Origin: Terriglobia bacterium
GTDB taxonomy: Bacteria; Acidobacteriota; Terriglobia; JAJPHL01; JAPKYU01
Assembly: GCA_965206645.1 (NCBI GenBank)
Contig: CBDBKE010000004.1
Location: 2,156,642 to 2,220,641, forward strand
Direction of reading: 5' to 3'
DNA: 64,000 bases
Part shown: one piece after another, positions 34,280 through 63,500 of the stretch
How the letters are laid out: each line of letters opens with the position of its first letter
Position numbering within the stretch: the stretch's first letter is position 1
Program-made: the position numbers and the translations under genes
Notes under the pieces: model-generated
Database searches by the model: none
Told to the model about the DNA's origin: nothing
The model's input: the letters and a program-made list of their open reading frames with translations, nothing else

Positions 34280-36853
34280 GTGCGGAATCCACTATTGCCG
34301 GTGGCCGCCGCTCTGGCCGGCGGCATTTACGCTGAACGGTGGCTGCGCCTTCACGAGCAGGAGTACCTGCTTTGGATCAGCATCCTGTTGTGTGCCGCGG
34401 CGATCGCTTTGCGGCTGCGGCACCATGCCGGCGCCCTCGCCCTCGCGCTGCTGGGCACGACGTTGGTCGGCTCCTTCTTCCTGTTCCACTGGCGGCACGC
34501 TCGGCCGCCTGAGGATATCGCCAACCTCGTGGACGCCGGTCGCGTGGACCTCAGCGAACCCGTCCGGCTGACCGGCTGGATTGCCCAGGCAACACTGCAT
34601 CGTGGCCGTGACGAAACCTACCTGTTGCGTCTGGAAGAAGTCGAGAGCCTGCAGCGAATCTGGCCTGCCTCTGGCACTATCCGCTTGCAATACTTCATCC
34701 TTGACTCGTTCGAACCACGGTTGAGCCTGCGCTATGGCGAGCAAGTGAGCGTGCGGACGCGCCTGCGGCCCGTCCGCGGCTTTCTCAATCCTGGCAGCTT
34801 CGACCGGCAAGGACGAGCCCGCCGCCAGGGTATGCTCTTCTACGCGAGCATCAAGGCGGCGGAATTGGTCGAGCGGCTCTCGGGCCAGCGCGGGTCTCGA
34901 TCGATGGCCGTTCTCGACGGCCTGCGCCGTGCACTGCTCGACCGCCTCGACGCTCTGTTTCCGATGCCGTCGCAGGCGAACGGGTTGCTCCGCGCTCTGC
35001 TGTTTGGAGACCGCTCGGGTCTGGATCGCCGAGTCTTGGAAAACTTTCGGAAGAGCGGTGCCTACCACGCTCTGGTTGTCTCCGGGCTCCACACTGCGGC
35101 GGTGGCCGGTTTCTTGCTGTTGCTGCTGCGCCTCTTCCGCCTGCCCCCACTTCCCGCCACGCTGCTGGCGCTGGCCGGCCTGGCCTGTTATGTCGCGCTG
35201 GTCGGGAGGAGCGTGCCCACCCAGCGGGCTGCGGTCATGATTGGCCTGTACCTGCTGGCACGCCTGATCTACCGCGAACGCGCCCTGCTGAATACGATTG
35301 CGGCCGCCGCCTTGCTGCTGCTGATTCTCCATCCGGCCGACCTGAACGATGCGGGCTTCCAGCTTTCCTTTTTTGCCGTGCTGCTGATCGCCGCAATTGC
35401 CGTGCCCTGGATAGAGCAAACCTCGGCGCCTTACCGCAGGGCCGTGGAGGACCTGGAGAATCGCGACCGCGATCTTACTCTGGCTCCCCCGCAGGCGCAG
35501 TTTCGTATTGAATTGCGAATGCTCGACGACGCACTCCGCGAAAAAGTGCCAGCATGGCTTTTCCTGCCAGCCGTGCGCGCCGCCTTCCGCATCTACGAAC
35601 TGCTCGTGGTCTCGCTGGTGATTCAGGTGGGATTTCTGTTGCCGCTATCGATCTATTTCTACCGTGCCAGTTGGGTTGGCGTGTCGGCCAATCTTTTCCT
35701 TGTGCCGCTTCTGGGGCTGGTGGTGCCGTTGGGAATGGCGACTCTGCTGCTGGCGCTCGTCTCCGAGACGCTGGCTGGACTGCTGGCCATTCCCCTGGCC
35801 GCGCTGCTGGAAATGATGCTGGCCGCGGCGCGCTGGCACGCTGGGCTGGCCCTGGCCTCCCTGCGCGTGCCGCCGCCTCCGCCGTGGGTCTCGGCAATGT
35901 TCCTGCTGGCGACGGCCCTGCTGGCCGGTAGCCTGCTGGCCCGCCGGGCCCGTCCGGCCGCAGCAGGCGCGCTAGCGCTGGCGGCCGCCGCGGTGCTCAT
36001 CACCTGGCACCCTTTCCCGCCTCAATTGCCGGAGGGCGAAGTCGAGATTACGACCCTCGATGTAGGTCAAGGCGATGCGTTGGTGGTGCTGGCTCCTCCA
36101 GGGCGGGTGATGGTGGTGGATGTGGGCGGCTTGCCCGGGAGGCAGGTCGCCACCGACACCGGCGAGATTGTCTCGGCCTACCTGTGGTCGCGTGGCATTC
36201 GCCGCATTGACGTGCTGGCTCTCACCCACGCCCATCACGATCATGTGGCCGGCCTGGAAACGGTGATGGCGAATTTCCAGGTTGCCGAGCTGTGGCTGCC
36301 GTCGATCCCCCACCTGGAAGCCTACGAGCGGCTCCAGCAAAGGGCCCGGCAACGCGCTATCCCGGTGCACACCTACAGCCGGGGAGACACGGCCCGCCTG
36401 GGCGAGGCCACCGTGGCCTTTCTCTCCCCAGGCTCGAACTACCAACCGGCGTGGCGCCCGCACAATGACGATTCTCTAGTGATGCGACTCAGCTACGGCA
36501 GGCGCGCGGCATTGCTGGCCGGCGATGTGCAACAGACCATGGAAATGGAGCTATTGCGCGATAGCCGTCCGCTGCAGGCCGACTGGCTGAAGGTGCCGCA
36601 CCACGGGAGTAAGAGCTCGAACTCGCTGGAGTTCCTGTCTGAGGTGGGCGCCCCATACGGAGTGATTTCGGTAGCGGCCAACAGTCGCTTCGGTCACCCG
36701 CACCCGGAGGCTCTGGAGCGATTGCGCGATGCCCGTGTTCGCCTCTTCCGCACCGACCGGGACGGCGCGGTCACCTGGGCAACCGATGGGAACCGCGGGC
36801 GCCTCAGCACCTTCCAGTGGGAACGCCGCCGCGCCGCCATCGACCTGTGGTGA
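34280..36853 (+). CDS. comEC: DNA internalization competence protein ComEC/Rec2
   Basis: HALVVSGLH, GFQLSF, and a metallo-beta-lactamase domain (LDVGQGDA, THAHHDH, KVPHHGS, GHPH). Confidence 0.95.
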   Translation: MRNPLLPVAAALAGGIYAERWLRLHEQEYLLWISILLCAAAIALRLRHHAGALALALLGTTLVGSFFLFHWRHARPPEDIANLVDAGRVDLSEPVRLTGWIAQATLHRGRDETYLLRLEEVESLQRIWPASGTIRLQYFILDSFEPRLSLRYGEQVSVRTRLRPVRGFLNPGSFDRQGRARRQGMLFYASIKAAELVERLSGQRGSRSMAVLDGLRRALLDRLDALFPMPSQANGLLRALLFGDRSGLDRRVLENFRKSGAYHALVVSGLHTAAVAGFLLLLLRLFRLPPLPATLLALAGLACYVALVGRSVPTQRAAVMIGLYLLARLIYRERALLNTIAAAALLLLILHPADLNDAGFQLSFFAVLLIAAIAVPWIEQTSAPYRRAVEDLENRDRDLTLAPPQAQFRIELRMLDDALREKVPAWLFLPAVRAAFRIYELLVVSLVIQVGFLLPLSIYFYRASWVGVSANLFLVPLLGLVVPLGMATLLLALVSETLAGLLAIPLAALLEMMLAAARWHAGLALASLRVPPPPPWVSAMFLLATALLAGSLLARRARPAAAGALALAAAAVLITWHPFPPQLPEGEVEITTLDVGQGDALVVLAPPGRVMVVDVGGLPGRQVATDTGEIVSAYLWSRGIRRIDVLALTHAHHDHVAGLETVMANFQVAELWLPSIPHLEAYERLQQRARQRAIPVHTYSRGDTARLGEATVAFLSPGSNYQPAWRPHNDDSLVMRLSYGRRAALLAGDVQQTMEMELLRDSRPLQADWLKVPHHGSKSSNSLEFLSEVGAPYGVISVAANSRFGHPHPEALERLRDARVRLFRTDRDGAVTWATDGNRGRLSTFQWERRRAAIDLW

Positions 36854-36999
36854 ATCTCACTGGGGGGCTCGGCAGAATCTTCCACAAGACCTCAGCTGTA
36901 AGGACTCAACCTGGCGAACGCTGGCACGTGGACGCTTGCTGGACTAAGGAGCGAAAACATATAATCGAACCGCACTGAGGCGCCCGTCCAGGATGGACC

Positions 37000-37275
37000 A
37001 TGAGTTCCACAAGCGGGAGTCGACTTCCGCGCAAACCCACCGAAGCTGAGATTCGAGAAGAAAGCCGGAAAACACGGCGGCTCCAGTTCCTGGTGCACCT
37101 GGTGATGAGCGTGATCAGCCAGAGCCAGCACATGCCCATCGAGGAGGCTTCGTCGATGGTGGCGGCCACCAAGCGGGCGGCCCTGACCATGTTTCCGGAC
37201 AAGGAATTTGCTTTCGACCTGATTTACAAGCCCCGCCTTCAAAGACTGCTCACCGAAAAATACAGGATTCAATAA
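37000..37275 (+). CDS. Small conserved hypothetical protein
   Basis: 91-aa ORF with TATAAT at about 36960 and an upstream purine-rich RBS; FPDKEFAFDLIYKPRLQRLL. Confidence 0.65.
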   Translation: MSSTSGSRLPRKPTEAEIREESRKTRRLQFLVHLVMSVISQSQHMPIEEASSMVAATKRAALTMFPDKEFAFDLIYKPRLQRLLTEKYRIQ

Positions 37276-37328
37276 CACTGCGGTTTGGCATCCGGTAAGG
37301 ATGTCAGCGGAGCGAGATCGCCTTTAGG

Positions 37329-37356
37329 TGGCGGAGAGGGAGGGATTCGAACCCTC
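37329..37356 (-). other. 3'-end remnant of tRNA-Ser (putative att site, island boundary)
   Basis: The minus strand reads GAGGGTTCGAATCCCTCCCTCTCCGCCA (T-arm, acceptor strand and CCA). No 5' half lies upstream. Confidence 0.8.
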
Positions 37357-37559
37357 ACTGTTTTCTGGAGCTACCTAAGTTACTGCTTTTCCCATGGGGC
37401 GAACGAGGCAAAGGGAGCGAAAAGCGGTATCTGGGGCATACAAAAGCGAACCTCATCACTTGCGTCATCACCGAGACAACCGACGCCGTCCGGCCTTGCC
37501 AAGCGGGCTATCATTAAACTGGTGCGGTCCTACTTCCTGGGGCGTTCCTCCTGATAAGC

Positions 37560-37593
37560 ATAGGTAAACACTGACCGACTAGTGGGGACCTAT
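37560..37593 (+). repeat. 34-bp 13-8-13 imperfect palindrome, site 1
   Basis: ATAGGTAAACACT-GACCGACT-AGTGGGGACCTAT. Confidence 0.85.
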
Positions 37594-37728
37594 CTGCCAA
37601 GTCTGAACTAACTCTTTCCGTTTCAGAGAATTACTGCAGCCCGAGAAAGTATCAAGAGCGCGGGAGATAGACCAGACCGGTCATAGGAGTGGTCGTATGT
37701 GGCTATAATCACTGCCTTGAGGAGTTCC

Positions 37729-38366
37729 ATGCGGTCCCTCTTGAACGAGCTGCTTTTAGCGGCCGTGTTTTCCCTCATGTGTCTTCCGGCTTTGGGCCAG
37801 TTTGCCCAACCTGCTTACTCGCGGTTGGACGCGCAGGGCACCCTTCCTGCGGGGTGCGTTGACGCACCCATTGTGTACGACACACCGGGCCGCCGGTTAT
37901 TTGATGTTCGGCGGGCAGGATGCCGCCAGCCCGCGCAATGACCTTTGGGAGTATTCCTTCGATCGTCGAGAGTGGACCGAGTTGAATCCATCGGGGACCT
38001 TGCCTCCAGCTCGTTTTGGACATACCACAGTCTTTGATCCTGTTCGCCGTCGCCTGGTCTTATTTGGGGGCCAGGCCGCGGGGTTTTTCAGCGACGTTTG
38101 GGCATACGATATCGCTCAGAACACGTGGCAACAGCTTAGCCCCGACGAGGCCGGTCCGAACCGCCGGTATGGTCATTCGGCGATTTACGATGCTGCGAGA
38201 GATCGCCTTATCATCTCGCACGGGTTTACGACCGCCGGCCGATTCGATGACACTTGGGCCTATGAGCTGGGGACAAACACTTGGCGGGAGATCTCGTCTT
38301 CCGGCATCAGGCCACTCCCTCGCTGCTTACACCACTCGGTTTACGACGAAGGAAACGGACAAATGT
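37729..38366 (+). pseudogene. Secreted Kelch-repeat protein, frameshifted (~37900) and 3'-truncated
   Basis: RBS and signal peptide at 37729. Kelch repeats (MFGG..NDLW, ARFGHTTVFDP...LFGG, RYGHSAIYD) continue in another frame and end at DEGNGQM. Confidence 0.8.
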
Positions 38367-38708
38367 TGGATGGCGTCCAATTTGGCGACCGATTCACAGG
38401 ACTTCCAAAACAACCGTGAAAGACTCATCGAGATCGGCTACCACGGAGGCCCAGGCAACGAACGGCGGCTCCTGTTTCTGTCCTACAGCCTAGACGTGTT
38501 GAATTGGTTTCCGGCCGGATGCATCGCCATGTGGCCCAGTCCTCTGCAGGCATTCATGTATCCATGCGTAGCGGTGGATGGGGACGACCTCGTGCTTATT
38601 TCTCGCACGTCGAAGGACGCTCAGAATCAGCACGACGCCGACCTGGTCACGTTCCACCGGATTCAGGACTTCCGGTCTTTGGCTCTGAACCTCCGTCCGG
38701 AGATCTAA
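38367..38708 (+). pseudogene. C-terminal fragment of a sialidase-like/BNR beta-propeller protein
   Basis: GNERRLLFLSYSLDVLNW..AG, FMYP...VDGDDL..ISRTS...NQHDADLVTFHRI.DFR; no start of its own, fused to the Kelch fragment. Confidence 0.55.
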
Positions 38709-38969
38709 GCACAGAGCGCAACTCAAGGCTGCACCCCACCAGCACACGAGGGCAAGGGTGGTCAGGGCGGGCGGATTGCCGATACGGTGATTTGGAGTAA
38801 GCCGCCCTGCCGATTTGGCAGGGCTAACCCTGTCGCCTGCCGCCGACAGAGCTACGCCAACCAGATCGCTGCTCAACCTGCCAGTCAAGCCACAGCGCCT
38901 CGCCGAGCTCGCCATGCTGTTCACGACTTTCGGGCTGGCGAGATTGAGCCTCCTCACCAGCAATGCCGG

Positions 38970-39003
38970 ATAGGTCTACACTAACGGACTAGTGGTTACC
39001 TAT
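38970..39003 (+). repeat. 34-bp 13-8-13 imperfect palindrome, site 2
   Basis: ATAGGTCTACACT-AACGGACT-AGTGGTTACCTAT. Confidence 0.85.
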
Positions 39004-39281
39004 GATCCACAGTGAATGGCGGTCGTAGCATGGTGATTTCGGGCGAAACCATCGCAGAGCGTTGCTCGGCCAAATTTACGCGGCCCTGCGGGTACGTAGA
39101 GGGCGGTACAGCAGGAGGGTAGGAATCCACCGCCGACGACCACCACGTCGAACTCGTGTGTCTCTTTCCTCGGTCTTACGCATGCCACCGTCGCGACCGC
39201 CGGACGCGATTCAACTGGCACGGCGGGCACTGCCGCGGAAACAGCTAGCCCTCCGAGGAACCTACGACGGGAAACGCTCAC
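39000..39281 (-). pseudogene. N-terminal fragment of a Tat-exported FAD-dependent oxidoreductase
   Basis: AAGGAG RBS and GTG start; SRRRFLGG Tat motif; HEFDVVVVGGG, after which the similarity stops. The frame ends inside site 2. Confidence 0.7.
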
Positions 39282-39327
39282 GGCATACTCCTTTGCCCAC
39301 GGATTCCGATCATTGTGTCTGGAGAGC

Positions 39328-40092
39328 TTACTGAGCCGTGTACCCGCCATCCACCATGAGCGGCGTGGCGGTAATAAAGGAAGCCTCCTCAGAGGCGAGG
39401 AAGAGAATGGCATTCGCCACTTCGCGAGGATCGCCCATGCGCTTGATCAAATGTAGCGGTTTATTCAGTTCCACCACCTGTTCCTTGGTCAGTCCCTTAC
39501 TGGCGGCATCGAGCATTATGGCGGGGGTATCTATAGCTCCCGGGCAGACGCAATTCACGCGAATGTTATCCGGCGCGAGATCGAAGGCCAGGCATCGTGT
39601 CATCTGCAGCACCGCCCCTTTGCTGGTATTGTAGGGGACAAAAGCAGGCTGGGCGATGAATGAGCTAATGGAGCCCAAGTTTACGATGGACCCGCCTCCG
39701 CGCTTTCGCATGTGGGGGACAGCGTACTTGGAACAGAACGCGTACCCTTTGACGTTCACGTTCAGGACCCGGTCCCAATCCTGCTCGCTGGCCTCTTCCA
39801 CTGTTCCGAAAACAAAGGCCGCAGCGTTGTTCACCAGGATATCCGGGCCACCCAGTTCGCGGGCTGCGGTGTTCATCAGCTCCCGCACTTCGGACTCGAT
39901 GGAGATATCGGTCTTGTGAAAAAAGGTCCTACCGCCGGCAGCTTTGATCTGGGCCACAGTCTCCTCGCCGCCGCGGACGTCCAGGTCCGCTACACAAACA
40001 GCAGCGCCCTCCTCGGCAAAACGAATTGCCGTAGCCCGGCCAATTCCCGAACTCGAACCGGTAACCACCGCCACTTTGTTCGCTAGACGCAT
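39328..40092 (-). CDS. Short-chain dehydrogenase/reductase
   Basis: TGSSSGIG, NNAA, YNTSK, NCVCPG and VDGG; AGGAGG RBS. Confidence 0.95.
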   Translation of the reverse strand: MRLANKVAVVTGSSSGIGRATAIRFAEEGAAVCVADLDVRGGEETVAQIKAAGGRTFFHKTDISIESEVRELMNTAARELGGPDILVNNAAAFVFGTVEEASEQDWDRVLNVNVKGYAFCSKYAVPHMRKRGGGSIVNLGSISSFIAQPAFVPYNTSKGAVLQMTRCLAFDLAPDNIRVNCVCPGAIDTPAIMLDAASKGLTKEQVVELNKPLHLIKRMGDPREVANAILFLASEEASFITATPLMVDGGYTAQ

Positions 40093-40146
40093 GTTCTCCT
40101 CCTTAGCTCATTTCACCTGCAGCTTTCAGAACTTCTGCCTCAAAAC

Positions 40147-40180
40147 ATGAGTAAACACTAACGGGCTAGCGTTTACCAAT
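40147..40180 (+). repeat. 34-bp 13-8-13 imperfect palindrome, site 3
   Basis: ATGAGTAAACACT-AACGGGCT-AGCGTTTACCAAT. Confidence 0.8.
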
Positions 40181-40216
40181 GTTCTGCCTGGATGGTATGG
40201 CGTTCCTTAGTTAAGG

Positions 40217-40250
40217 ATAGGTAAACACTAACCGACAAGTGGAAACCTAT
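40217..40250 (+). repeat. 34-bp 13-8-13 imperfect palindrome, site 4
   Basis: ATAGGTAAACACT-AACCGACA-AGTGGAAACCTAT; flanks are homologous to those of site 1. Confidence 0.85.
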
Positions 40251-40357
40251 CTGCCAAGTCGGAGCCAACTCTTGCCGTATTAGGAAGGCCGCCGCTGATC
40301 ACCGAGGGACAGATCGTGGCTGAAACCGCGTTCTGAGTGTGAGGGGAAAGAGAACTC

Positions 40358-41191
40358 TCACGGGTCACGGCGTTTCGGTGGGGCAGCTGACACGCCTTCT
40401 AAGCCTCCACTGACTCTGAGCACCTCGCCCGTGATCCAAGAGGCTGCCGGACTGCACAGAAAAGCAACGCTCCGTGCGATATCGGCTGGCTCTCCCCATC
40501 GCCCCAGCGGGATAGCGCTGCGAATGCGCTCAATCATCTGATCCTCGGTGAGATTCAGGGTTTGGCAGCGCTGCGCCATGATGGTCTTGTTAAATTCCGT
40601 ACAGACAGGACCCGGACTCACGGCGTTTACCCGCACGCCGTAGGCGGCAAGCTCCAGTGCCAGCGTCTTGGTCAGACTGATCACACCGGCCTTGGCCACG
40701 TTGTAGGCCGCGACCAGCGCTGCTGGATTCTGGCCGTTGATGGAGACAATATTGACGATACACCCGGATCCCTGCCGCTCCATGATTCGTGCTGCGGCGC
40801 GGCAACAATAGAACGTTCCGGTCAAGGTGACACCTGGGACGCGTGCCCATTCCTGGTCTGTCAGATGGACGACCGGGGCGACGTCTTGTCCAACACCGGC
40901 ATTGTTGACCAGAATGTCCAACCGACCGTATTCAGCAACTGTCCTGTCGAAGAACTCGGTCACCCCACTACTAGCGGAGATATCCAAACGGGCTGGCTGC
41001 ACATTCAGACCTTGCTCCCGCAACTTTTGGGCCGATGCCTGTGCATTTTCCAGTCTGATGTCACCCATGATCACCCCGGCGCCGTCGCAGGCAAGCTGCT
41101 CAGCGATCCCCAAGCCCAGCCCCTGGGCCGCTCCGGTCACCACCGCAACTAAGCCATCCAGCCTATGCAAAGAAGTCGTACCTTCACTCAT
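40358..41191 (-). CDS. Short-chain dehydrogenase/reductase (FabG-like)
   Basis: TGAAQGLG, NNAG, YNVAK, NAVSPG and IPLGRWG. Confidence 0.93.
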   Translation of the reverse strand: MSEGTTSLHRLDGLVAVVTGAAQGLGLGIAEQLACDGAGVIMGDIRLENAQASAQKLREQGLNVQPARLDISASSGVTEFFDRTVAEYGRLDILVNNAGVGQDVAPVVHLTDQEWARVPGVTLTGTFYCCRAAARIMERQGSGCIVNIVSINGQNPAALVAAYNVAKAGVISLTKTLALELAAYGVRVNAVSPGPVCTEFNKTIMAQRCQTLNLTEDQMIERIRSAIPLGRWGEPADIARSVAFLCSPAASWITGEVLRVSGGLEGVSAAPPKRRDP

Positions 41192-41300
41192 GAACGAACT
41201 CCCTTGATGACTTATCCCCGTCCAGCAAAACTACAGAGTCGGCCACAGTTACCACATGACCGATCCGGCCAATGGGCGTCAAGGTCTTACTCATTGGGTT

Positions 41301-41612
41301 TCATGGGCGGTCTCGGAGCGGCATTAACTCTCGGCATTTGGTAACGAAAGCATCAAGATTATCAGGGACGAATCTAATGCGCGGTGGCCAACCTCGCCTC
41401 CGGACGTACACGTGTGGATGGAACGTGGCCCAATCGTTATTGTACGACCACCAAGTCTCAATCGGGCGACGGAAAGCATCGGCAGCCACCGGCTTGGGAC
41501 GTACGCCGATCTCGATGATCTTGTCGAATGGAATCTTGATCGTGTGGAAAAGAATCCGTGCTTCCAGCTCAATTCGGTCGCGGTAGATACGATACTCTTG
41601 ACGCCAACTGAG
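41301..41612 (-). pseudogene. C-terminal part of a hypothetical (PH-domain-like) gene truncated by IS1380
   Basis: The open frame LSWRQEYRIYRDRIEL...IKIPFDKI starts at the IS boundary; the ORF-track N-terminus comes from IS sequence. Confidence 0.45.
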
Positions 41613-41717
41613 CCCGGATTTCCGTTTTGAAACTCCAAAGCTAACCTTATACTGACCTCCGACGCCAATATTTATGCCGGTTCCAGCGTCAATACAGCTT
41701 CCGGAGGTAGAAACCGA

Positions 41718-43046
41718 GTGGGTGAGAGGCAAAATCAGCCCTTTCAGTTCTCTTTCAATGCTGCATTGAAGGTCGATTTCCAGGGGTCGCGGGTTACTTC
41801 CGACGGCGGCCTGATCCTCGTGCGCGAATCAGACGAACATTTGGGATTCGGAGAACTCATCAAACAGCACTTGGCCGATCCTCGGAGAAAGAACACACGG
41901 TTGCCCTTTGCTGACCTCCTGCGCCAGTCCGTGTACAGCCGCTTGGCGGGTTACGAAGATATGAATGACGCGGAACGGCTCTCTCAAGATCCGACGTTCC
42001 GGCTGATCGGTTCAGAAAAGATCTGGGAGCGAGGAGCCGCGTTGACTTCCCGGCTGCAATCGTTCGAGACAGAACTACTGACGCAAGATGAGAACCTGGC
42101 TGGTTTGGCAGCGATCAACCGGGATTTAATCGCCAGGGCGGAAGCTATGGATTCCCCGCAACGGGTGGTGCTGGACATGGACTCGACCGAGATTCCGGTC
42201 TACGGCCAGCAGGAGCAGAGTGCCTACAACGGGCATTTCGAGTCGAGCTGCTATCACCCGTTGTTGCTGTTCAATCGCGAGGGTGACTGTCTGGCGGCCA
42301 AGCTGCGACCGGGCAACGTGCACAGCGCCGAGGACTGGAAAGAACTTCTCCTGCCGGAGATCGAGCGGCAGCAGCAGCTGGGCAAGGAAGTGGTGTTTCG
42401 TGCCGACGCGGCCTTTGCCAAGCCGGAGATTTACGAGGCTCTGGAGGAGCGGGAGGTAAAGTACGCCATCCGCATCCCGGCTAACGACAGCCTACAGCGG
42501 GACATTGAGGAGTTGCTGACTCGGCCGGTGGGGAGACCCAGCAAGAAGCCGTTGGTGGAGTTCAAGGGCTTTCTATACCAAGCGGCCAGTTGGAAGACAG
42601 CCCGCAGGGTGGTGGCCAAGGTGGAGCATCATCCAGGGGAGCTGTTCCCGCGAGTAGGGTTTATCGTTACGAACTTGACTCTGCCAAGTCGGGCGGTGAT
42701 GCGGTTTTACAACAAGCGGGGGACAGCGGAGCAGTGGATCAAAGAAGGAGAGCAAGCAGTGAAGATGACGCGGCTCAGTTGTCACCGGTTCCGGTCGAAC
42801 GAGGTCCGGCTGTGGCTCACCATCATTGCCTATAATCTCGGCAACCTGTGGCGGCGACTGGTGCTGCCACAGAGAATCGGGAACTGGTCCCTGACGAGCT
42901 TGCAACAGCGGTTGGTGAAAACGGGAGGACGGCTGGTGAAACATGCGCGATATTACTGGCTTTTGCTGGCCGAAGGGCACTTGAGCCGGAGGCTGTTCAG
43001 CAGCATGCTGCGAACGATCTCGGCACTGCCGCTGCCAGACGGCTAG
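41718..43046 (+). CDS. IS1380 family transposase
   Basis: TSDGGL, GYED.NDA, LDMDST, YNGHF..CYHPL, RADAAF and YNKRGTAEQWIKE. Confidence 0.95.
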   Translation: MGERQNQPFQFSFNAALKVDFQGSRVTSDGGLILVRESDEHLGFGELIKQHLADPRRKNTRLPFADLLRQSVYSRLAGYEDMNDAERLSQDPTFRLIGSEKIWERGAALTSRLQSFETELLTQDENLAGLAAINRDLIARAEAMDSPQRVVLDMDSTEIPVYGQQEQSAYNGHFESSCYHPLLLFNREGDCLAAKLRPGNVHSAEDWKELLLPEIERQQQLGKEVVFRADAAFAKPEIYEALEEREVKYAIRIPANDSLQRDIEELLTRPVGRPSKKPLVEFKGFLYQAASWKTARRVVAKVEHHPGELFPRVGFIVTNLTLPSRAVMRFYNKRGTAEQWIKEGEQAVKMTRLSCHRFRSNEVRLWLTIIAYNLGNLWRRLVLPQRIGNWSLTSLQQRLVKTGGRLVKHARYYWLLLAEGHLSRRLFSSMLRTISALPLPDG

Positions 43047-43205
43047 CGAACCGGGAGAGAGGGTAATTTTAGGTGCTCAGAAGTGGTCGGGCCGGATAAG
43101 TGTCAGCGGCGCGGCAGGCTGGGCAGGCGAACCCCGCACAGCGACTCCGAAGAACAGCCAAAATGTGCCGCACTACCACCTCAAAGAGGCCAGAGCTGTT
43201 TGCGG

Positions 43206-43234
43206 TTGACACGACAGGGTACGAGGCATAGCTT
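43206..43234 (+). promoter_or_regulatory. Putative outward-facing sigma70 promoter in the IS1380 right end
   Basis: TTGACA-17 nt-TAGCTT. The same motif is at 52955-52983 (+, TAGGTT) and 56652-56680 (-). Confidence 0.6.
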
Positions 43235-43543
43235 TTCGGGTGAAGAGGAAGCTCAAAATGGAAATTCCGGCTCAAACACTACCGGAACTTGGGCGAAGAG
43301 GTTCACAGGACTGACTACCAACAAACACAAGCAAGAAAAAACCGCTGCTCGAAGCATTATAGAGCTATCTCCCGGTTCAGAAAGAAATGCAGGGCGCCGA
43401 TTATAGTTGGTTTCTTAAGCCTGGACAATGCCAGATGCGGAGTGGGAGCCTGGAGATGTTGGAGCTATTAGAGGTGTGATCCATCGCCTCATCACGAATG
43501 GGGGACGCGCCCGGAGGGGCGAGAGGTCGCCATAAACTTGCCT

Positions 43544-60514: not shown

Positions 60515-63500
60515 ATGGCTCTGGAACTGAAGTACGCGTCTGACACGGCCCTGCTCCTCGACGACTTGGTCGACTCGCTGGGTAGGCCGGGGAGTGCTGC
60601 AGGCGTGGTGGTGCCTGTGCTGATGCCGGCGCTGCCCCTGGTGGACCGCACGAAGGTCGTGCTGGCCCAGCGTCACGGGGTGGCCATGGGTGTGGCGTTC
60701 TTCCTGCCAAGCGCCTTCATCGAGCACATGGCTCAGCTAGTGGGTCTGGATCCGGTCCATCCCTCCTGGCGCCCGCAGGGCCTGGCGTGGCGCCTGGTAC
60801 CACTGCTGGCGGCCATGGTCGAGGACGGCGACACTCCGCGCCTGCGGGCGGCGTGCGCGGACACTCGGGCGCGGCAAGCGCTAGCCCACGACGTGGCCGA
60901 CCGCTTCGACCAGTATCTCTATTTTCGACCGGAGATGATTGCCGGCTGGGACCGGGGCGAGACCTGGGACGCCCTGCCAGAGGCGGCTCAGGGCGATGAG
61001 GCCTGGCAGCGAGACCTGTGGCGGCGTCTCTCTGACGGGCTGGCCGACCACCTCCATCCGGCCGTACGCCTGCGTGATCTCGTGACGCGCATCCACGCTG
61101 GCCAGGGTGACTTGCCGGCGTCACTGGAAGTCCTGGCCATCGGGCCTCTGCCCCCGACCCTGCTGCCACTGTTACGCGCGCTGGCGACCAGAACCAGGGT
61201 CTGCCTGCGCGCCCTGCTCCCGTCGACTGAATACCTCGGCGACCTTCGCGCCGGTCGCACGCAGATGCGGGCCGGGCAGGCTGTGGACCTCGCCTGGGAA
61301 GGGCACCCCCTGCTGTCCCATCTGGGCAAACAAGCCGTTGACAGCTTTCGCAGTTTCGAGGAGGCACTCGTCACCGAAGGTCAGGAGTACGACGTGATCG
61401 CACTCCCCGAACCCCGGTCGGACACACTCCTGGCCCGTCTGCAGGCAGACATTCGCGCGGCGCGGCAGCCGGGTGCCGCCACGACCTCCCCGCTGGTCAC
61501 ACCGGATCATTCGGTGCGTGTGCATCGCTGCCACGGTGCCCGACGAGAGGTGGAAGTGCTGCGGGATGAATTACTGGACGCGTTCGAGAGCCTCCCCGAT
61601 TTGCGGGCAAGCGATGTCTTGATTCTCGCTCCCCAGCTGGATCTCTACGGACCGCTCGCCGAGGCGATCTTGCGGGACGGTGACCCCTCGTTGCCGCTGC
61701 GGCTCGCGGAGCGGCAGATCGATCGCAGCGACCCCTTGGTGTGCGGGACGCACACGCTGCTGCGCGTGGCCGCTGGCCGCGTGCCCCTGAGCGAGGGACT
61801 GGCGCTGCTGGCACTCCCCGCCATCGCCACACGCGTCGAATCGCTGGGTACTGACCCGGCCACGCTCGCCGATCATGTGCGTGCGGCGGGTATTACGTGG
61901 GGGCTCAACGCGGACCATCGTCGGTTGATGGATGCCGGCGACCAGGGCACGGGGACGTGGCGCGAGGGGTTGGACCGGTTGCTGGCGGGCGTGTGGCTGG
62001 GTGACGCGGACACCGCCTCGGACGGGCACCACCGCCCGGCTTTGCCGGTGTCGGGCGACCTGGGTACCGACCCGGCGGCGATGAGCGCGTCACTCGACTG
62101 GCTGGACGGCTTGGTGTGCCTGCTGGACGACTGGCAACGTGAGGTCAGCCCCGGCCAGTGGGCCGACCGCCTGGATCAGGCGCTGGACCAAGTGTTTGCT
62201 GCCGGCGACGATCGGTTCGACTCGCTGGCGGCCGTGGACCTGGTCGGGCAGCTCCGCGCCGCTGAAACGGACCATGCGTGCGATGTCGCCGTGGACGCCG
62301 CCACAGTGGCCGACTGGTTAGACCAGGTGGTTGAGGAAGAGGTTCGCACGGTGTCCCGGGTCGGTGGGGGCATGGCGATGGGCGGCTTCAAGCCGATGCG
62401 TGCCATGCCCTGCCGCGTGCTGGCGGTGGTGGGTTTGCACGATGCCGCCTTTCCACGCCGAGCCCGAGCGCCTGCCTGGGACCTGCTGGCCGCGGCGCCG
62501 CAGCGTGGCGACCGAGATCCGGTGCGCGAAGACCGGCAGCTGTTTCTGGACGCGCTCTTGGCGGCCGCCGACCGTGTGATCCTGACGGCCACAGCCCGCA
62601 ATATCCGCAGCAACAAGGACGAACCGCTCTCGGCCTGCGTCGATGAATTCCTGCGAGTGGCCGCGGCCACCGTCTCCGACAGTACCGACGTACGGGAGAC
62701 GACGTACCGGGACCTGATCGAAGACCACCCGCTGCAACCATTCAACGCGGCCTGCTTTACCGGCGCGCGCGCCTCGTTCGACACCGGCCGCCTCGAGGTT
62801 GCCCGCGCGTGCCAGCAGCGGCAGGAAGAGGCCACACCGTTCCACGCCAACGTGTTCGAGCCGCCCGAAGCGGTCCAGTCGGCCGACCTCGAGTTGCACG
62901 AGATGATTCGGATTCTCAAGGATCCCTGGGCGGCCTGGCTGGGGTCCCTGGGGGTCGAGATCCCACAATCCTGGGACGATCCGTTTGCTCTGGATCGGGA
63001 GCCGGTGGCCGCCCCAGCGGGCCTGGACCGGTGGCAACTGCAGACCGCGGTCATTGATGCCGTACTCGAGGGACGGACCTCGTTTCTGAAGGAACGTCTG
63101 GCGGCCAACCGGCTGCTGCCGTATGGGATCCTGGGCGCCGCGATGGGCAGACAGGCGGTGCAGGAAGCCGAGTCCCTGGCCCGACGCGCCCTGCACGAGG
63201 CGGGCGGCCGACTGCAGCCACAGCGTCTGGTGTACCGAGACGGGTGCCCGCCGGTGGCCGGCAACATTGCCGTCACCCCTGACCGCCGGCTGCACGTGCT
63301 GGTCAGGCCCACAGAGCTGAAGGCCGCCGCCCATCATCGTCTCGATGTGTGGGTCCGCGCGACCTTCGCCGCCGCCTGCGGCATGCGCGGCGACACCGTG
63401 GTGGTGTCGAGAAATGGAGAGCGCACGAGGGTGGACCAGCGGCCGGCCATGGCCTCAGATCAGGCGCGCGCCGCGCTCGACCATCTGCTGCACCTGTGTG

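Follow-up and report, generated by a model that had tools for sequence, protein, structure and literature searches.

Paired 34-bp sites as probable end modules of transposon-like gene cassettes in a genus of Terriglobia

We analysed a stretch of 64,000 nucleotides of a Terriglobia bacterium (positions 2156642-2220641 of contig C4 of the source genome G000, 4.4 Mb), here called the window, in which four 34-bp sites of arm-spacer-arm structure partition a small gene island. An earlier note on this DNA had interpreted them as loxP-like crossover sites of a tyrosine recombinase, bounding an array of gene cassettes. All four sites are present at the positions claimed for them (37560, 38970, 40147 and 40217), a repeat search of the window placed all of them in one 34-nt family, and three of them match the proposed 13-8-13 consensus with three mismatches each, with no match in 100 shuffles. 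The four window sites are real and non-random.

The array begins with site 1 (37560..37593, + strand), which is the left end of the array as well as of its first cassette and is followed by a conserved inner flank (37594..37626, +) common to site 4 and to several other genomic sites of the same type. The cargo of cassette 1 (37699..38708, +) is, according to Pfam, a kelch beta-propeller remnant fused to the tail of a BNR-like gene. Site 2 (38970..39003, +), with the conserved inner flank of its own type upstream, is carried by a 493-bp segment (38782..39274, +), beyond which stands the first of two short-chain dehydrogenase (SDR) genes, SDR1 (39328..40092, - strand; Pfam adh_short_C2, E 1e-66). 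Sites 3 (40147..40180, +) and 4 (40217..40250, +) are separated by a 36-nt linker (40181..40216, +) that is seen again at other junctions of this short form, and after site 4 the conserved inner flank continues to 40283. The extra flank homology which the earlier note had ascribed to sites 1 and 4 corresponds to a 72-nt repeat (37555-37626 and 40212-40283, 85% identity). The second dehydrogenase gene, SDR2 (40358..41191, -; Pfam adh_short_C2, E 9e-62), is followed by an insertion sequence (IS; 41607..43276, +) with a DDE_Tnp_1_4 transposase (open reading frame 41718-43046), where the array is broken.

Comparison with relatives revealed that this locus is changeable. In the relative G001 the array locus is 96% identical, and the array is contiguous and one cassette longer: comEC is followed by site 1 (A; the ortholog lies at L013 2210), the kelch and the BNR-like gene, SDR1 (hit by an IS), sites 3 and 4 (B, A) and SDR2, and further on by a B-to-A junction and a cupin gene; a last B closes the array, and the DNA beyond it is 266 kb off in G000. 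Compared to G001, the source genome has lost 2.2 kb in cassette 1, has an extra 493 bp with site 2, and its array is split. The loss in cassette 1 is a deletion at 38365/38366, which produced the gene fusion; in G001 the kelch and BNR-like genes are both intact (585 and 439 aa). The segment carrying site 2 is absent in G001 and in one metagenome contig (run X8), where 38779 is joined to 39275, and no clear target duplication was found at its edges. An IS-linked inversion has split the array of G000 at 41612, its other half being located at C4:1929780-1928351 beside another copy of the same IS end. In G002 the whole array is missing: comEC joins the far flank via 88 bp, with homology starting again at about 5 nt outside the last B. 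On the left, G002 and G003 stay syntenic up to 37295 and 37274 respectively, and the margin of the variable region (37296..37559) begins 265 bp before site 1 and not at the site. The array is thus a variable island of cassettes that were gained, lost and broken between relatives, in agreement with the earlier note.

No tRNA or tmRNA was detected at the edge of the island by ARAGORN, and an Rfam scan of 36500-41500 gave only two sub-threshold matches of chance level. The margin left of site 1 contains a 28-nt tRNA-like stretch (T-arm and acceptor 3' end; 37329-37356, minus strand), where ARAGORN predicts no tRNA; the same 28 letters are also found at other places in G001 and G002, and an older integration at a tRNA gene could have left this stretch as a scar.

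The 13-8-13 palindrome proposed for the sites stands as an arm-spacer-arm structure and does not stand in its sizes, since the arms are one base longer on each side, giving 14-6-14. Neither are the sites imperfect inverted repeats in the sense of a degenerate palindrome: each of them contains instead a conserved mismatch of three bases against three. In type A (sites 1 and 4) AAA is opposite GGG and the spacer is ACCGAC, while in type B CCC is opposite TTT and the spacer is ACGG(G/A)C; site 2 (spacer ACGGAC) belongs to B, as does site 3 by its spacer. Site 3 is nevertheless a hybrid: its left arm is of type A, its spacer and right arm of type B. Type A agrees with reversed B at 30 of the 34 positions. 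All four window sites are typed on the + strand, in the order A, B, B, A.

Two asymmetric consensus patterns, one for A and one for B, match only these four sites in the window with at most 9 mismatches in 34. The statement that the motif occurs nowhere else is nevertheless true of the window only: scanning the whole of G000 with the two patterns gave 76 sites (A+ 19, A- 18, B+ 19, B- 20), dispersed over about 40 loci. The two sub-types hold across the genome with systematic polarity, and among the 68 sites that were tabulated the left triplet, two spacer positions and the right triplet are almost completely linked; the hybrid haplotype occurs once, as site 3 of the window, and the CCC...GGG type is not found among these 68. 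The motif is present in all four genomes of the genus and in none of 37 other relatives, a backwards control pattern giving no match. G001 and G003 have 40 and 43 pattern matches respectively, where some sites are counted on both strands, and a metagenome scan for the A/B core yielded two stretches only. Only one of the 76 sites is contained in an open frame of at least 200 codons, against 338 of 400 random positions; the sites are intergenic.

The arrangement of the sites is regular. Among neighbouring pairs 300-6000 bp apart, 14 of 22 are A→B in one orientation, where about 3 would be expected with random types and strands, and pairs closer than 300 bp are mainly B→A (8 of 10). The chromosome therefore reads [A-cargo-B][A-cargo-B], and the sites delimit gene cassettes, as had been proposed. 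The cargo consists of ordinary genes of diverse kinds (for kelch, BNR-like, cupin, TPR, Ser/Thr kinase, FHA and SDR proteins), Pfam gave no match for several large cargo proteins, and conserved flanks reach past the 34 bp on either side of the sites. In four A sites (C4:2091859, C3:194414, C3:902071 and C2:100730) the spacer is interrupted after ...CCGA(C) by about 60 nt of inserted sequence, which is the same in all four, and in one of them the right arm resumes past it. A TPR cassette is present in two near-identical copies (C1:264435-265294 and C4:3751-4609) with flanks that are identical past the sites; one copy is near a contig start, and the pair represents a large duplication or an assembly repeat.

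In one class of cassettes, the long form, mobility could be read directly. Here the stretches u1 (56 nt outside A) and d1 (about 50 nt outside B) are inverted copies of each other ending in GTAGTGGGTCAGTTTCC, and u1 together with A aligns with the reverse complement of B and d1 across about 95 nt. A and B lie about 25-30 nt inside a 27-nt terminal inverted repeat beginning GGTAGTGGGTCAGTTTCCG, designated T. Of the 47 T ends in G000, 25 are accompanied by an A or B site no more than 200 nt away. G001 and G003 lack a 3146-bp unit with a kinase gene (C3:758-761 kb), and G003 lacks a unit of about 2.9 kb (C2:192-195 kb), the loci being otherwise collinear; the empty sites keep a single copy of the short sequence which flanks the G000 unit on both sides. 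Of 21 T-bounded units, 10 from G000 and 11 from other genomes, 14 have direct repeats at their edges that agree at 7 or more of 8 positions, 6 of them perfect, and the sequences of these repeats vary by locus, whereas pairing the flanks of different elements gave such repeats in 3 of 420 controls. Duplications of 8 bp which vary by locus, together with outer inverted repeats, are the mark of transposition with an 8-bp staggered cut and not of site-specific recombination at a fixed core, so that for the long form the crossover at the sites assumed in the earlier note is not supported.

At long B-to-A junctions the same 10-nt spacer separates the abutted T ends (C2:441235, 478028, 496617 and 522208; C4:68644 and 1915729; and others); this would mean a strong preference for one 8-bp target, or else copying of the 220-bp junction as a whole. 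The short junctions were also considered as deletion products of the long ones; the alignment was suggestive around the centre only and not convincing.

The T repeat is not restricted to this genus. Its exact 19-mer was found in 24 of 201 genomes of the class, belonging to 20 of 99 genera (control 0), and in more than 112 public contigs, which are mostly metagenome-assembled genomes (MAGs) of Acidobacteriota with a few labelled as other phyla. Where both ends are seen, T bounds either elements of 95-200 bp, of the type of MITEs (transposable elements in miniature, with inverted repeats), or one or two ordinary genes, including transporters, a P-type ATPase and secreted proteins. Weak matches to the T end (4-5 mismatches in 19) occur elsewhere in the window at 60736 (+), 1912 (-) and 16749 (-). 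MAG contigs L102, L112, L120 and L168 encode 825-aa proteins of one family, at most 4.5 kb inward of a T end; judged by the N-terminal sequence this is a putative duplicated ABC-permease, and these cases hint that T cassettes may spread members of expanded paralogue families.

Taking these results together, we propose that the 34-bp sites are the left (A) and right (B) end modules of genus-specific, non-autonomous elements resembling mobile insertion cassettes (MICs), of which a transposase supplied in trans moves the long form, the arrays arising by repeated insertion; we assign to this a probability of roughly 0.6. Such elements would carry one or two ordinary genes and no transposase. The transposase would move the whole T-ended unit and cut the target with an 8-bp stagger, as the empty sites and the duplications indicate; further insertions beside an existing end could then create the B-to-A junctions and hence tandem arrays, and the array of the window would be a short form of such cassettes that lacks the T repeats. 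No enzyme is encoded inside the cassettes, so that any catalysis must be in trans, and in this respect the earlier note was right. Its cassette logic is supported in part; its loxP-like crossover is not.

Several observations weigh against this explanation. All four sites of the window are of the short form, without T repeats, and for the short form neither target duplication nor crossover could be demonstrated. The linkers of the short B-to-A junctions and the 10-nt spacer of the long ones are conserved sequences and not random duplications. G003 has close homologues of both SDR genes with no site within 5 kb, which may reflect either capture or conservation. Elements bounded by T outside the genus have no A or B, so the sites are not needed for T transposition. 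Apart from secondary IS insertions, to which all transposases seen inside the units belong, no transposase was found inside any T-bounded element (97 fetched loci and G000), and the 25 largest repeat families of G000 were all without T-like ends; neither G000 nor the 97 loci of other genomes yielded a parent IS or a transposase that recognises these ends.

Candidates for the autonomous partner of T were rejected one after the other: three abundant ISs have ends which do not resemble T, the IS256-family matches correspond to a 1440-bp IS already ruled out, and an IS30-family transposase, the only one that recurs in T-bounded DNA, belongs to a separate 1229-bp IS with its own ends that had inserted into T. 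This last IS has 16 full-length copies in G000, and it was observed inside T at about nucleotide 28 at C1:293713 as well as on L099 (3330-3800) and L100, two MAG contigs labelled as different phyla, which suggests that it targets that T sequence.

What the A and B sites contribute can be judged from their pattern of conservation. Sequence changes in the stems mostly break the pairing, while conservation is highest in the non-pairing triplets and the centre; covariation is weak (at most 4 two-sided changes per pair, against 3-16 pair-breaking sites per pair), and the hairpin energies are modest (-10 to -14 kcal/mol). Conserved triplets and stems with broken pairs point to recognition of the duplex by a protein rather than to an RNA or single-strand hairpin, and a protein with two different half-sites on the duplex fits better. 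A dimeric protein most likely binds to the sites and so marks the ends or regulates them, and we infer an accessory role of the sites such as marking of left and right, regulation or insulation. They are probably not sites of strand exchange.

The alternative which survives best is that A and B are heterospecific sites of a tyrosine or serine recombinase acting in trans. Exchange of A with A and of B with B, in pairs, would then swap the cargo between loci, in the manner of recombinase-mediated cassette exchange or of pdif modules, and the transposon shell would serve as a landing pad; we regard it as unlikely. The bipartite 14-6-14 geometry with two distinct half-sites and a directional spacer speaks in its favour, as do more than 10 different cargos between near-constant ends and the hybrid of A and B arms at site 3. 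At two orthologous insertion sites the cargo differs between relatives whereas the outer end and the target duplication are the same, an observation that also counts against the transposition model: in one of them (G001 L065 and G000 C2:777-778 kb) a breakpoint falls within 2 nt of the inner edge of A, and the other distinguishes G002 from G000. At a locus other than the window array, the homology of G000 and G001 begins 12 nt outside an A site. Such replacement of cargo would also be explained by homologous recombination between the ends of about 95 nt, and the other breakpoints are outside the sites (at about nucleotide 27 of T, at 37 nt inside B, and where the 493-bp indel starts and stops).

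The spacers bear on the same question. ACCGAC of A and ACGGGC of B are each tied to their own arm type, and this consistent difference would prevent a loxP-type enzyme from exchanging A with B, against the compatible spacers that a lox-like system implies; A x A and B x B exchange would still be allowed. The hybrid already mentioned is the only one among the tabulated sites, from which the CCC...GGG type is missing. Furthermore, the sites do not cluster near recombinase genes: G000 has 36 Phage_integrase matches, and 6 of the 76 sites are within 5 kb of one, where 5.4 are expected. No excision-like joint was seen in four sequencing runs, all examined as assembled contigs, so this is no evidence of absence; the joints between sites in those contigs have short sides (20-31 nt) and extra letters, and they match other genomic repeat copies. 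We also considered A and B as attL and attR products of two perfect palindromes and rejected it, there being one of the predicted AAA...TTT scars and no CCC...GGG site.

A bolder version is less likely still. In it A and B would form a natural heterospecific pair with which a recombinase of the genus swaps single-gene cassettes inside transposon shells and builds tandem arrays, while the class-wide, cargo-only T family may rely on an undescribed or domesticated transposase and drive the expansion of paralogues in Acidobacteriota. If this were true, the A/B layer would be a case of chromosomal cassette exchange on top of cargo-only transposons.

More doubtful again is the possibility that the sites are intergenic repeats with a host role (terminator or insulator, mRNA stability, or binding of nucleoid proteins), comparable to repetitive extragenic palindromes (REPs) and BIMEs, some of which ride in transposable units. 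The motif is genus-specific and almost always intergenic, its two types alternate in orientation and are joined by few discrete linker forms, B stands about 30 nt past the stop codons of cargo genes, and the hairpin energies given above would suit such elements. However, the weak covariation of the stems and the fact that within the arms conservation is greatest in the triplets that do not pair speak otherwise, two Y1-transposase (RAYT-like) genes have no flanking sites (the best nearby match, in 3-kb loci, has at least 15 mismatches in 34), and the A→B bracketing of cargo and the insertion polymorphisms place the sites in mobile units. Finally, operators of a dimeric transcription factor for the adjacent genes are very improbable, since in spite of the palindromic geometry, and of a distance of only 55 bp from site 3 to the downstream start codon of SDR1, the motif exists in 76 copies. 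These have 40-100 nt of conserved flank, are located 5' or 3' of unrelated genes in either gene orientation, and appear and vanish together with inserted DNA.

Transposition of T-ended units with the sites as end modules brings these elements closest to MICs, an example of which is MIC231 of Bacillus. MICs are described as inverted repeats derived from IS or Tn3 elements around passenger genes, without a transposase (PMC4337579, PMC3913671). With them the cassettes share inverted-repeat ends, a target duplication (in the long, T-bounded form), one to a few passenger genes, the lack of an internal transposase and catalysis in trans. Four of five features of MICs and non-autonomous DDE-type elements were found (inverted repeats, a duplication that varies, empty-site polymorphism and transposase-free passengers); the fifth, a parent IS with the same ends, is missing, and here the cassettes differ from MICs. 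They differ also in having two-layer ends, composed of the class-wide 27-nt T and the genus-specific 14-6-14 palindrome in left and right versions, and in their tandem arrays and a form without the terminal repeat. Short, non-autonomous T-ended elements with an 8-bp duplication (about 200 bp in G017 and 95 bp in G030) resemble MITEs, whereas most copies in this genus hold whole genes. Literature searches, which did not extend to supplements, returned the concepts of MICs and MITEs and no paper on these motifs. The earlier note had named a known IS or MITE end as a finding that would speak against its reading; in spirit the sites answer to this, although the family itself appears in no paper found.

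The other likenesses are looser: for each of the lox/dif, attC and REP-RAYT families, one or more of the defining features tested are lacking here. With loxP and FRT the sites share only the arm-spacer-arm geometry, namely inverted arms around a 6-nt spacer, and here there is no evidence of strand exchange in the spacer. The pdif modules of Acinetobacter plasmids are bracketed by XerC/XerD sites, which are likewise bipartite around a 6-bp spacer, have arms of two types and carry them in opposite order at either end of a module; the present sites have no dif-like core, their A and B spacers differ, they are accompanied by outer inverted repeats and target duplications, and no link to Xer or other tyrosine recombinases was found. 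A dif consensus had no match in G000, and a loose search for dif cores returned one unrelated 11-6-11 pair and one candidate dif, neither of them like A or B. With integrons they have in common single-gene arrays with composite imperfect palindromes, the B-linker-A junction resembling the two simple sites of attC; on the other hand there is no integron integrase beside the arrays, the sites are dispersed, the genes lie in either orientation and there is no Rfam match. The absence of attC ends reported earlier was confirmed on reading the sites, which lack RYYYAAC and GTTRRRY boxes. REP, BIME and REPIN sequences are also genus-specific intergenic imperfect palindromes of two types, with inverted pairs and discrete linkers, but the RAYT-like genes here are unflanked and the present sites bound DNA that inserts with target duplications.

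The tempting geometric, loxP-like reading is thus replaced by a tested one, in which the sites are end modules of transposon-like single-gene cassettes, and a wider family came to light: cassettes bounded by T, a single terminal repeat of perfect conservation, with an 8-bp duplication and no linked transposase, scattered in Acidobacteriota and in a few MAGs labelled as other phyla. The expansion and shuffling of gene families has long been noted in soil Acidobacteria, and if the trans-acting enzyme were found, these cassettes would offer a concrete mechanism for it. The A/B layer would be a tractable, putative case of transposon ends that have gained additional protein-binding modules.

Other mobile DNA of the genome was observed alongside. 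In one element, unrelated to A and B, inverted palindromic 11-6-11 sites whose core resembles TAA-N6-TTA stand on both sides of a tyrosine recombinase gene (338 aa), and this element has two copies in G000 (C4:1036880/1038238 and C4:1172943/1174301). The IS load of G000 is heavy, with repeat families of 58, 35, 21, 19, 18 and 16 copies. A 1.28-kb IS (L018 16450-17740) is 99.3-99.6% identical between G000 and G003, although the genes shared by these genomes are only about 85% identical, which points to a recent spread of this IS between species.

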